Origin: an uncultured Candidatus Saccharibacteria bacterium
GTDB lineage: Bacteria > Patescibacteriota > Saccharimonadia > Saccharimonadales > Saccharimonadaceae
Direction: 5' to 3'
Assembly (NCBI GenBank): GCA_963519835.1
Contig: CAUQNE010000001.1
Location: forward strand, 115,914 to 179,913
Length of the DNA stretch: 64,000 nt
Shown here: positions 24,029 to 30,913 of the stretch, in pieces
How positions within the stretch are numbered: the stretch's first letter is position 1
Layout of the letters: each line of letters begins with the position of its first letter
Translations under genes and position numbers: made by a program
Notes under the pieces: model-generated
Told to the model about the DNA's origin: nothing
Database searches by the model: none
What the model saw: the letters and a program-made list of their open reading frames with translations, nothing else

Positions 24029-24997
24029 CTACCCAAACATCATCAGCTGCGCCACCAGCCCATCGCGGGTGATGCTGTTGGCGTGGGTGCCAATGCAGAC
24101 CAGCTTGGGTGCTTCGCCAGGCTGGCCAGTGGTGATCTGAATCTGCTCGGGCGTAGCCTCGATGTGCCGGCGCGTGCCATGCTCATCAATAAAGCACCCC
24201 TTGAGCCGGCGCAGCTCATACGTCGCAAAGAGCTGCAGCCACAGCGCCTCAAAGGCTGCCTCGGTAGCAGTGAGCTGCGACATATCGATGACGCTATAGG
24301 TCGGGTTATCTGGCACGGCAAGTTCGCCATCATAGGTATCGAAGAAGGTGAGTAGACTCGATGGCGTTGTAATCTTGCTGAGGTCAAAGCGCCCATGCGG
24401 CGCAGACAACACCCGCGCGTAGGGCAGGGCGCGGCGCTTGGCATCATAGGTGGTGCGATCATCGCCGTGCAGGAGATCTTCTTTGGTGATGAGAATCGTG
24501 TCGGCGGCTTGCAGCTCCACCTCGTGGGCTGGCTCAATACCGCGCAAAATCTCGTGCGCCGTGATGACATAATAGCTCTGCAGCAGCTCGTATTTGGCAA
24601 AGATCCGCGCATTGATGAGCTTCTCTACCAAGTTTATCGTCCGCGCGACCCCTGTTGCCTCGATAAAAACTGGGGCAGGGGACGACTGGCAAAAATCCAG
24701 CAGCATGCGCGTCAAGGCATGCTTAGACGAGCAACACACGCAGTCGCCCGCCAGCGTCGTCACAAGCTCCGCCAGGCCTTCTAGCCGGTAGCCGTCGACA
24801 TTCTCGTTGGCATATTCATTCTCTATCACGCGCGAGCCAGCAAACTCCGGCTGGCGCAAAAGATACTCCAGCACGCTCGTCTTGCCCGCCCCGAGCGAGC
24901 CATTGATGAGGTAGAGCGGCACCAGGCCAGGCTGGGTGCGCTGCTCATCAAAGGCAGCATTGAGGCTAAATTCAAGGTCGTTATCGCGCTGGGCCAT
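24029..24997 (-). CDS. COG0523/CobW-family G3E GTPase (putative metallochaperone)
   Basis: GSLGAGKT, ENE, GDCVCC (CxCC), EATG, TKED; CobW_C-like RLKG. Confidence 0.88.
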   Translation of the reverse strand: MAQRDNDLEFSLNAAFDEQRTQPGLVPLYLINGSLGAGKTSVLEYLLRQPEFAGSRVIENEYANENVDGYRLEGLAELVTTLAGDCVCCSSKHALTRMLLDFCQSSPAPVFIEATGVARTINLVEKLINARIFAKYELLQSYYVITAHEILRGIEPAHEVELQAADTILITKEDLLHGDDRTTYDAKRRALPYARVLSAPHGRFDLSKITTPSSLLTFFDTYDGELAVPDNPTYSVIDMSQLTATEAAFEALWLQLFATYELRRLKGCFIDEHGTRRHIEATPEQIQITTGQPGEAPKLVCIGTHANSITRDGLVAQLMMFG

Positions 24998-25276
24998 GGG
25001 TTTAGTATAGCATGATGGGGCTGCCCGCTCGCTCTAACAGAGTATCTTATGGTCTTGTACTAAGGGGTAAGGCTGCTAGGTACGGTGCGATAGTTGAACA
25101 AGAAAATATATGGAGGCCAGCCATACAGCAGGCGGATGATCGCTGTAGTGTAATCTGGCCGGAACATTTTCGGTTCAGCTACAGCACCACCAATGCAGCA
25201 ATTGTGCTAATGCTTTTATAATCACAACCTCACACTACAGCCACGACAAAACCTCATCCATGCTATACTAATACGT

Positions 25277-25852
25277 ATGAAATTAATCCTGGCCCAAGGC
25301 AACCCTGGCAGCGAGTACGCCCGCACGCGGCACAATATTGGCTGGCAGTGCCTGGACGCGCTGGCCCACACCTACGGCGCCCAGTTTGCCACCAAGCCCA
25401 AGCTGCACGCCGCCACCGCCAGTGCTACCATTGCTGGCCAGCCGGTGCTGCTGGCTAAGCCAACCACCTTTTACAACGATACCGGCCGGGCGGCCCGGGC
25501 GATCATGGATTTTTATAAAGTATCGCTTAGTGACGTGCTTGTTATCCATGACGAGCTAGCGCTGGAACTTGGTATCATTCGTGTGCGCCACAGTGGTAGC
25601 GATGCGGGTAATAATGGTATTAAATCACTCAATGCCCACCTAGGCCAGGGCTATGCGCGGCTGCGGATTGGTATCCACAACCCACTGCGGCGACGTATGG
25701 GCGATGCAGCCTTTGTGCTCAAGCCCTTTAGCCAGGCAGAGCAAGAGGCGCTTGGTACGGCCATTATCCCAGCCACCACCACCCTGGTAGAGCAGTTTGC
25801 CACAGGCACGCTGGCCGATACTAGCCAGCGCGTCTACACCACGCCGGTATAG
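25277..25852 (+). CDS. pth: peptidyl-tRNA hydrolase
   Basis: GNPG..Y..TRHNIG, KPTTFYN, VIHDEL, AGNNGIKS, RLRIGI. Confidence 0.96.
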   Translation: MKLILAQGNPGSEYARTRHNIGWQCLDALAHTYGAQFATKPKLHAATASATIAGQPVLLAKPTTFYNDTGRAARAIMDFYKVSLSDVLVIHDELALELGIIRVRHSGSDAGNNGIKSLNAHLGQGYARLRIGIHNPLRRRMGDAAFVLKPFSQAEQEALGTAIIPATTTLVEQFATGTLADTSQRVYTTPV

Positions 25853-29331: not shown

Positions 29332-29838
29332 ATGGCAGTCACTACCACCCCCATCACCCAGCATCTACGCCACCATGGCTATAGCATTACCGCACCGCGC
29401 CTGGCAGTCCTGCGTGTGCTGCAGCAGGCCGATGGGCCACTTAAGCGGGCCCATATCGCCGAGCGGGCCACCGCCGCGCCGCCCGCAGGTAGCTCCCAGC
29501 CTGCAGCCGCTACGCCACGCTGCAATCGCGCTAGCGTCTACCGGGCGCTACAGGTGTTTGAACGTATTGGCATTACCACCGTGCATATGCGCGGCTGGAC
29601 ACCGTATATTAGCCTGGCAGAGCCCTTCCAGCCACACCACCACCATATTACCTGTACGATGTGTGGCGCGCGCCAGGATGTGGCCACACCAGAGCTCGAA
29701 GCCGCCCTGCAAGCCGCCGCCAGGAGCCACGGCTATAGCCTGGGCCAGCATAGCGTCACGCTCAGCGGTATCTGCCCGCGCTGTCAGCATCGTGCCAGCA
29801 CCCATACGCATACCCGCGGGCACTCACACAGCACGTAG
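29332..29838 (+). CDS. Fur-family transcriptional regulator
   Basis: TAPRLAVL, ASVYRAL, HHHHITCTMCG, GICPRC, His-rich tail. Confidence 0.9.
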   Translation: MAVTTTPITQHLRHHGYSITAPRLAVLRVLQQADGPLKRAHIAERATAAPPAGSSQPAAATPRCNRASVYRALQVFERIGITTVHMRGWTPYISLAEPFQPHHHHITCTMCGARQDVATPELEAALQAAARSHGYSLGQHSVTLSGICPRCQHRASTHTHTRGHSHST

Positions 29839-29854
29839 GCAGCACCAGCCAGCG

Positions 29855-30913
29855 CTACTGTGCCTGCTGCCGCCGGGCCAGCCGGCGCTTTTCGTACATG
29901 CTCGAGCAAATGGCCGTCACAATAAACACCAAGCCAATGCTCCCGGTGACCCACTCTGGTGGCTCGACCTGGTAGAGCTTAATATACATCATGGCACCCA
30001 GGGCCATAATCGCCCAGTGGGCACCATGCTCAAGGTAGCGGTACTGGGTGAGGGTGCCGGCCCGCATCAAATATACCGTTAGCGCTCGTACCCAGATTGC
30101 CCCCACACCCAGGCCCGCGATAATCAGCAGCAGGCTGGTGGTAATAGCAAAGGCCCCAATCACACCATCAAAGCTAAAGCTAGCATCCAGCACCTCAAGG
30201 TAGAGGAAGCTGGCAAAAGCCGCCCAGCCTACCTGGACACCGGCTTGATGCGCCGCGCCGTGCTCATCATCATGGAAGAACGAACCAAACAGCTCTATAC
30301 CAATATGTAGCAGAATCCCCAAAATACTCGATATCAGCACGATGGTCTGGTACTCCGGCGCCACCGTAAAGTACAGCGCCACCGCCACACTCAGCATCAG
30401 GCAGATCTTGAGGTTTTCGAACCGCCCCGCCCGGGCCAGCCAGGATTCACCCTTAAGCCAGTGGGTGGTTTTGCGCCGATCCATAAAGTAGTGAATACCA
30501 ATCATCAAGAGGAAAGCCCCGCCAAAGGCATCAATCATCGGCGCGGCGTGGTGCAGCACCTGGCCGTAGCGGGCTGGGTCGTGTAGAGCGAGCTGCACCA
30601 CATCACCAAACCCCAGGTGGGCGGCAATCATCACAATCACAATTGGCAGCACAAACCGCACCACAAACACCGCAATAAAGATCCCCACCGTTAGGAAGAT
30701 CTTTTGCCAGAAGGGGCTTAGGGTTGCCAAGACGCGGCTATTGATGATGGCGTTATCAAAGCTGAAGGTCACCTCCAGCAACACCAGGATGGCAAACACC
30801 CACAAACCGCTCGTCCCCAAATAGCCAAAGACCGCCCCGCCCAGCAACACTGTCAGCAGCGCCGAAAACCAAAAAATACGAAAAGGGTGATGAGAATGCC
30901 AAAGATGTTTCAT
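29855..30913 (-). CDS. DUF475 (TerC-related) integral membrane protein
   Basis: LEVTFSFDNAIIN, LEVLDASFSFDGVIGAFAIT, YLEHGAHWAI; many TM helices. Confidence 0.88.
   Translation of the reverse strand: MKHLWHSHHPFRIFWFSALLTVLLGGAVFGYLGTSGLWVFAILVLLEVTFSFDNAIINSRVLATLSPFWQKIFLTVGIFIAVFVVRFVLPIVIVMIAAHLGFGDVVQLALHDPARYGQVLHHAAPMIDAFGGAFLLMIGIHYFMDRRKTTHWLKGESWLARAGRFENLKICLMLSVAVALYFTVAPEYQTIVLISSILGILLHIGIELFGSFFHDDEHGAAHQAGVQVGWAAFASFLYLEVLDASFSFDGVIGAFAITTSLLLIIAGLGVGAIWVRALTVYLMRAGTLTQYRYLEHGAHWAIMALGAMMYIKLYQVEPPEWVTGSIGLVFIVTAICSSMYEKRRLARRQQAQ

Follow-up and report, generated by a model that had tools for sequence, protein, structure and literature searches.

Opine-like zincophores such as staphylopine and pseudopaline (made by cntLM, with MFS or EamA export) are among the closest described counterparts of the system studied here, a cassette of three minus-strand genes (cooC-ocd-ligase) divergent from a fur gene. 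The cassette lies in a 64,000-nucleotide stretch, called the window, of contig CAUQNE010000001.1 from an uncultured Candidatus Saccharibacteria genome (GCA_963519835.1, labelled G000; 1.08 Mb, 52.6% GC). The likeness consists in a predicted reductive opine formation and in the EamA genes beside distant copies. By contrast, the partner in the window is an ATP-grasp ligase, the reductase has the ornithine cyclodeaminase (OCD)/mu-crystallin fold, from which the fold of CntM presumably differs, and no dedicated importer or exporter was found in G000. The operon genes, the part of the genome searched for them, include neither nicotianamine synthase nor CntM. Opine-like zincophore clusters are described as Zur-regulated (PMC8000910), with EamA as their usual exporter (PMC7438024). 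A second counterpart is the aminopolycarboxylate [S,S]-ethylenediaminedisuccinic acid ([S,S]-EDDS) of Amycolatopsis japonicum. It is made with a pyridoxal phosphate (PLP) enzyme and a lyase and uses an SbnB-like enzyme, whereas the window cassette uses an ATP-grasp ligase. [S,S]-EDDS is zinc-repressed and has been proposed as a zincophore (PMC7586795). The third is the SbnA/SbnB diaminopropionate module (staphyloferrin B, capreomycin, sulfazecin), in which SbnB, the closest characterised relative of our OCD-fold enzyme, is NAD+-dependent and oxidative (PMC10906522). Our cassette works like an opine zincophore cluster but, by its sequences, falls outside both that family and SbnAB. Judged from search listings of literature other than subscription papers and supplements, we found no description of the cassette, of the ocd-ligase pair or of its regulon, and nothing linking Saccharibacteria, ATP-grasp and zinc.

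We propose, at about even chances, that the cassette is a zinc-starvation pathway to an opine-amide metal chelator, with putative substrates, product and metal. The proposal starts from observed folds, residue patterns, gene linkage, box conservation, regulon context and selection. Its elements, in window positions, are as follows.

25834..27225, minus strand: predicted circularly permuted ATP-grasp amide ligase of the eukaryotic glutathione synthetase/GspS clan, 463 amino acids; R117-x-D119, E135-x-N137, K300, K355 and R434 conserved
27216..28307, minus strand: OCD/mu-crystallin-fold oxidoreductase of a separate clade, 363 amino acids; K64-K99-R142-D334 tetrad kept, Ser192-Arg193 where NAD-type members have Asp
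28300..29232, minus strand: CooC-like SIMIBI ATPase, 310 amino acids; deviant Walker A GKGGSGKT, Cys128-x-His130, with His142 and His282 also invariant
29332..29838, plus strand: divergent Fur-family regulator, Zur-like by its regulon; HHHH motif, two CxxC
29262..29282, no strand: conserved operator of TGCAA-N5-TTGCR type, one mismatch from a perfect palindrome, 29 bp before the cooC ATG and containing the -35 hexamer
29241..29269, minus strand: sigma-70-like cassette promoter, by consensus match only; TTGCGA (29269-29264), 17 nt, TACAAT (29246-29241), 8 nt before the ATG
29273..29300, no strand: N12 palindrome TGTTGCAA-N12-TTGCAACA, its left arm forming half of the conserved box; found in the near-identical clade only

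An earlier note, made from the sequence alone, had placed all the open reading frames of the block correctly, including the three minus-strand genes and their overlaps: 8 nt for cooC/ocd, 10 nt for ocd/ligase and 19 nt between the 3' ends of the ligase and pth genes. It was also right to see a genome of the candidate phyla radiation (CPR) type, the ligase relatives being Ca. Saccharibacteria in 14 of 14 loci, and a Fur-family regulator divergent from cooC. In a Pfam/NCBIfam scan, the FUR, OCD_Mu_crystall, cobW, DUF475 and Pth matches of proteins at this locus passed the Pfam cut-offs.

The 463-amino-acid ligase has no Pfam or NCBIfam family match. A profile search of 1.84 billion representatives returned 899 proteins at E≤0.001 and 18 at E≤1e-30, and 57 of 105 aligned relatives matched CP_ATPgrasp_2 at E≤0.001. 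Across these 105 sequences R117, D119, E135, N137, K300, K355 and R434 are at least 90% conserved, and they align with potato glutathione synthetase (GS). An AlphaFold2 (AF2) model built from the same alignment (predicted local distance difference test, pLDDT, 94.3) had glutathione synthetases as its best structural matches (Z 28.2, root-mean-square deviation 3.8 Å, 419 residues). Matches to GS, GspS, YgiC/YjfC and Cp1B ranged over Z 21.7-28.2, the following ones reached Z ≤11.9 and unpermuted ATP-grasp proteins Z ≤9.2; Foldseek gave E 1e-17 for this GS/GspS-type clan. Judged from the model, the protein has a full-length permuted GS-type ATP-grasp fold with intact catalytic residues, much as the earlier note had predicted, and family knowledge makes it an amide-forming ligase. 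It resembles eukaryotic-type glutathione synthetase, GspS, YgiC/YjfC and fungal Cp1B in fold and ATP/Mg residues. It differs from them in being only 9-15% identical, in its own substrate loops (NQSAPLA and ERGYPAKFVDLP), in lacking a family match and in having a reductase as partner. A phylum-wide sample of 400 genomes contained no full-length ligase (three genomes gave weak C-terminal matches), and no match was found on plasmids.

The OCD-fold enzyme, whose homologues start about 18 residues downstream of the annotated start, matches PF02423 at 171.9 bits (cut-off 24), and K64, K99, R142 and D334 fit the [R/K]-K-R-D tetrad. SbnB (TIGR03944) is its nearest named family and its best match in both NCBIfam and the PDB, but the score is 191.5 bits against an equivalog cut-off of 326.9; a distant member of the clade scores 166.8. 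We took as the OCD clade the first 110 of the best 120 of 209 matches, mostly above 41% identity and ahead of a drop in score. A quick tree built on 36 selected rows set 28 apart from SbnB (Shimodaira-Hasegawa-like approximate likelihood ratio test, SH-aLRT, 100), including two from below the score gap, and showed SbnB as a long branch. Residues that we take to be active-site positions of SbnB divide: the equivalents of Lys78, Arg94 and Arg122 are kept in 109-110 of the 110 members, and Arg occurs at the Arg60 position in none. At the NAD-selecting position all 110 carry Ser, Ala or Gly, with an adjacent Arg or Lys in 103, while Asp is found in 9 of 12 outer sequences and in Staphylococcus aureus SbnB. 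An Asp after the second Rossmann strand marks NAD-dependent members of the OCD family, which also includes tauropine and strombine dehydrogenases (PMC4141209), and an NADPH-using member alkylaminates 2-oxo acids (PMC8446579). By the rules for Rossmann folds, the missing Asp and the Arg/Lys neighbour point to NADP(H) and so to a reductive role. These features suggest an NADPH-dependent imine reductase making an opine.

An oxidative route of the SbnB kind would have the enzyme cleave a scavenged opine, either N-(1-amino-1-carboxyl-2-ethyl)-glutamic acid (ACEGA) or a neighbour's metallophore, to give diaminopropionate or another amine for the ligase. The best-match status of SbnB and its three retained residues favour this route, which we consider very unlikely in view of the low score, the separate clade and the absence of Arg60, of the NAD-type Asp and of SbnA. 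The last of these was sought as the PALP family (PF00291), which gave no gene in 5 plus 1 cassette-bearing genomes, two of them single-contig (control 14/14); no source of ACEGA is thus apparent in these six. On the same grounds we rejected an SbnB identity for the enzyme, to which the earlier note had likened it, and its observation that SbnA is missing and its fallback of imine reduction or opine formation both gained support. No OCD-clade member of comparable score occurred in the 400-genome sample (six weak matches); plasmids held distant OCD/SbnB matches only and viral contigs two distant OCD matches.

The CooC-like ATPase gave only a sub-threshold CbiA match in the scan but aligns with the nickel-insertion ATPase CooC1 over residues 1-214 (E 2e-8), GKGGSGKT falling on the CooC1 Walker A. 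Besides the deviant Walker A, it shares one Cys of the metal loop; W126-S-C128-H-H130 stands in place of the CooC1 CxC, whose first Cys is replaced, and of these residues only C128 and H130 are invariant in 22 sequences. Invariant His130 and His282 and a longer C-terminus further set it apart. The protein is probably a metal-binding dimer using Cys128 and His130. No CO dehydrogenase client lies in the locus, to which the search for one was confined, and a single-sequence fold of the ATPase was discarded (pLDDT 35). Its next relatives are actinobacterial ATP-binding proteins of about 35% identity. Of two such loci seen, one has fur-family, COG0523 and AztC/MntC-like metal-ABC genes around the gene, and in the other it precedes a SCO5389-family gene. 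Within the order, cooC was found in 8 of 301 genomes; the seven others are about 33% identical and head different partners, with a divergent fur-like gene (by translation) in six. Under the same box, the partners include a cysteine-synthase-rhodanese fusion, a short-chain dehydrogenase/reductase (SDR) and a CECG-motif protein, so that cooC belongs to the regulon and not only to the ocd-ligase pathway, of which the earlier note had made it a specific part.

Several of these loci deserve separate mention. In four genomes (L075-L078) cooC is followed by an unannotated protein of 250-275 amino acids with the CECG motif, without a Pfam or NCBIfam match in the copies scanned, and in two by ZIP next. 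At L204:10600-13006 and L081, cooC precedes, under the same box, a PLP enzyme that resembles cysteine synthase and carries a fused rhodanese domain. In G034 (L009/L016) cooC is split near codon 107-112, through either an assembly error or decay.

The regulator matches PF01475 (52.4 bits) and has four invariant Cys residues (a Cys4 structural site); its Zur model score is 30 against 167. Before cooC a single promoter-like site was found, with its -35 hexamer inside the box. When promoters are aligned, TGCAA-N5-TTGCR stands 29-30 bp ahead of the cooC start codon in three lineages, namely the window clade, a second clade within the genus and a metagenome contig of 944,881 bp; protein identity among them is 42-58%. 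The latter two, distant lineages repeat the spacing from the box to a TACAAT/TACGAT hexamer. The palindrome that the earlier note had proposed does exist; shuffling the intergenic region 3000 times gave an 8-bp inverted repeat in 55 cases, and the exact N12 palindrome is unique in the genome. Its presence in the near-identical clade only argues against it as the conserved operator, which on the alignment is the TGCAA-N5-TTGCR box that overlaps the palindrome and covers the -35. The right arm (TTGCAA, 29293-29298), 17 nt before a TACTAT, may serve as the -35 of fur, a reading made by eye and under the promoter-scan threshold.

The box recurs beyond the window. The genes co-occur elsewhere, as the earlier note had expected: in G783, at a different chromosomal site and in a fourth arrangement, the box lies between fur and ZIP-cooC-ocd-ligase, and in the second clade of the genus, which lacks an adjacent fur, a near-perfect box precedes the cassette and is found again ahead of a distant fur and of a DUF318 permease. 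An exact 14-base box was found in 16 of 151 genomes of the order, one locus per genome, and its reversed control in one. A fur, ZIP, metal-ABC binding protein or cooC gene starts ≤250 bp from it in 13 of the 16 loci. With a matrix trained on other genomes, the top G000 site was the promoter of a second fur. The box shared by fur, ZIP and metal-ABC loci supports the metal context that the earlier note had assumed, and we read it as marking an order-wide Zur-like metal regulon with putative zinc transporters. Weaker box-like sites (7 looked at in G000, 5 in other genomes), none adjoining metal genes, were set aside as background.

The locus of the second fur (L026:6661-9796; G000 contig C4, ~90.7-93.8 kb) has a perfect 21-bp box and is divergent from an SDR and a COG0523 gene, the latter encoding 542 amino acids with a His-rich linker and a long C-terminal extension; L079, from another family of the order, has a similar SDR after cooC. 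One genome (G572, L065) carries 12 exact box copies, possibly a repeat element, which do not adjoin metal genes at the locus seen. A third Fur-family gene of a different type, PerR-like by eye, stands before thioredoxin on contig C4 (~104.86-105.3 kb, L183), with its own TGTAA-N5-TTACA palindrome upstream.

The cassette genes and fur appear to be under purifying selection. The ratio of non-synonymous to synonymous substitution rates (dN/dS) was 0.09 for the ligase, 0.12 for OCD, 0.06 for cooC and 0.13 for fur, over 19 near-clade loci that are not independent; three truncated or error-rich loci were left out. Apparently broken genes among the 19 were cooC in two and OCD in one. Among the sequencing runs listed as carrying matches, none was of RNA, and all shares were under 0.2.

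The pathway that we infer, from repression and metal to cofactor, reaction direction, substrates, product and chelating role, would run as follows. With sufficient metal, most likely zinc, a Zur-like repressor on the TGCAA-N5-TTGCR box would block the -35 element, and starvation would lead to transcription of cooC-ocd-ligase. The OCD-fold enzyme would use NADPH to reduce the imine that a 2-oxo acid forms with an amine, which would create an N-carboxyalkyl (opine) group; the ATP-grasp ligase would convert a carboxylate into an acyl phosphate and join it to an amine. Working in either order, the two would yield a small opine-amide with many carboxylate and amine donors, binding metal outside the cell for uptake or inside it as a buffer. 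The CooC-like ATPase would be a general companion of the regulon and need not act on this pathway.

Several observations weigh against this scheme, some of them bearing on the metal. The window box scores 15.9, seventh in the genome, where shuffles give 3-7 sites above 14; with so weak a match, its case rests on positional conservation. Leu95 is invariant in the alignment region where Mycobacterium tuberculosis FurB has a regulatory-site Cys, which we take to belong to a Zur-type site. Mn or Fe could be the metal handled by ZIP, TerC and the ABC binding protein, and AztC and MntC score close. A regulator without the usual Zur cysteine leaves room for Mn or Fe, and the same chemistry with one of them as the metal, overlapping the zinc proposal in all else, is unlikely in our estimate. 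For it speak the TerC-type neighbour, a ZIP and an ABC binding protein that are not metal-specific by score, and the regulator lacking the Zur-type Cys; alphaproteobacterial Mur also has a TGCAA-type box. Against it, the ATPase homologue stands among fur-family, COG0523 and AztC/MntC-like ABC genes in one of the two actinobacterial loci, and COG0523 genes, many of which are Zur-regulated (PMC8000910), recur in the cassette's chromosomal slot and under the box. The company of ZIP, COG0523, AztC-like and DUF318/DUF1980 genes speaks for zinc, as does the similarity of TGCAA-N5-TTGCR to the Desulfovibrio Zur box ATGCAACnnnGTTGCAT, itself a prediction, with which it shares a TGCAA-N5-TTGCA core (PMC545781). 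Our searches found no literature support for a zinc role of DUF318/DUF1980. We presume such a role.

Transport is a further difficulty. No EamA, ZIP or ZnuA family gene was found in G000 (among 5 genomes searched: EamA 1, ZIP 0, ZnuA 0), which leaves export and re-uptake unexplained; a DUF318/TIGR03943 permease pair was all that was found there, with no box seen upstream. The missing exporter would fit a metal-regulated cassette whose product is not a chelator: for example, a conjugate resembling glutathione or an osmolyte, a substitute for some zinc-dependent function, or a protein or peptide modified by the ligase. We regard this as rather unlikely. The nearest ligase folds are thiol-peptide ligases and the uncharacterised YgiC/YjfC, and the same box and cooC head unrelated enzymes, both in its favour, but small-molecule opine chemistry accounts best for the reductase partner, the operon holds no genes for peptide-tag partners, and an EamA exporter follows the pair in both distant loci seen. 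These are two metagenome loci of 36-39% GC (L051, L052) with the order ocd-ligase-EamA. The OCD of one of the two has as its sister a protein with the label Ca. Eremiobacterota, and a Ca. Xenobiia protein belongs to one distant ligase cluster. By gene content the ocd-ligase pair is the conserved core of the cassette.

The distant copies also count against the opine-amide chelator proposal, in that L052 has neither cooC nor a box before ocd, so the pair is not always visibly metal-linked, and for only 5 of 10 distant ligases does an OCD-clade protein come from a contig of exactly the same length, for one of them a cooC as well, which is an indirect sign of linkage. The cassette is moreover absent from 90 of 105 genomes of the genus, and so dispensable. 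The OCD gene occurs in 15 of the 105 (15 of 78 high-quality genomes), in two clades, and none of 100 other genomes of the family of G783 has the cassette. Locus L052, together with a slot whose cargo is variable and exchanged between near-identical genomes, could mean that ocd-ligase makes an exported metabolite unrelated to metal and was captured behind cooC in a recombination-prone slot. Such hitch-hiking seems to us quite unlikely, since four arrangements, one of them at another site beside ZIP, have retained the cooC-ocd-ligase order and the box with proteins 42-58% identical, and since a cassette without adjacent fur still has a near-perfect box that matches the one at the distant fur.

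The genes around the cassette are the following.

25277..25852, plus strand: pth, probably a foreign allele that arrived with the block (left flank of the exchange); outside the regulon
29855..30913, minus strand: DUF475/TerC membrane protein, probably a foreign allele that arrived with the block (right flank); no box upstream; present in close kin without the cassette
24029..24997, minus strand: COG0523 GTPase with a CxCC motif, outside the exchanged block; no box upstream

In the earlier note DUF475 and COG0523 had been counted with the unit; both occur without the cassette in the closest kin and lack an upstream box, and on this evidence they lie outside it. In the second clade of the genus, a COG0523 gene comes immediately after the ligase. 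The four closest kin examined (engA 99%) lack fur-cooC-ocd-ligase; their COG0523 proteins are 95-97% identical to that of the window, their pth alleles 50-53% and their DUF475 alleles 74%. Grouping G000 with these kin was rejected for the pth tree (17 rows; approximately unbiased (AU) test, p 0.015) and the DUF475 tree (10 rows; p 0.0016), values to be read as indicative, since the group tested was defined on the engA tree when the pth and DUF475 trees were already known. The engA, COG0523 and dprA trees do group G000 with them. The simplest reading is that the block from pth to DUF475 is an allelic replacement from a more distant Saccharibacterium. The earlier note had suspected insertion from GC content. 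Positions 25834-29838 do have 62.1% GC against the genome mean, a value reached by 1.35% of 1034 4-kb windows, but GC at third codon positions (GC3) is 0.63-0.72 in the block genes, no higher than in engA (0.73) and rluB (0.70). GC alone is therefore no proof of insertion; we dropped it in favour of the gene trees, which do support a foreign origin.

In other kin, the engA-pth-dprA interval holds ZIP, COG0523 or DUF318/DUF1980 permease genes. One such slot (L176:6460-11962, 89% engA) has a DUF318/DUF1980 pair, a second COG0523, fur and three boxes. TATACT stands 6-8 nt before the ATG of cog0523, pth and DUF475 (24998-25010, 25264-25276 and 30914-30927), which suggests leaderless transcripts. 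Elsewhere in the window, positions 30945-33614 encode a trypsin-like protein and a 447-amino-acid protein without family match, of lower GC3 (~0.5), which vary strongly or are absent among near-identical genomes, and positions 19332-20888 a response-regulator receiver domain with a long Pro/Ala/His-rich tail.

On the established view, Saccharibacteria produce hardly any metabolites themselves. If the proposal is true, a two-enzyme pathway that is conserved, selected and metal-controlled would break with this metabolic poverty and bring a new enzyme pairing to metallophore chemistry, and the box defines an order-wide metal regulon that the searches made did not find in print. The system lends itself to direct testing: both enzymes are soluble, the operator spans 21 bp, and there are near-identical genomes that carry or lack the cassette. 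Tentatively, and at less than even chances, Saccharibacteria may make a new class of opine-capped-amide metallophores under a Zur-like regulon of their own, with which the epibiont would compete for zinc with, or for, its host, and strains may swap this ability through a single chromosomal slot.

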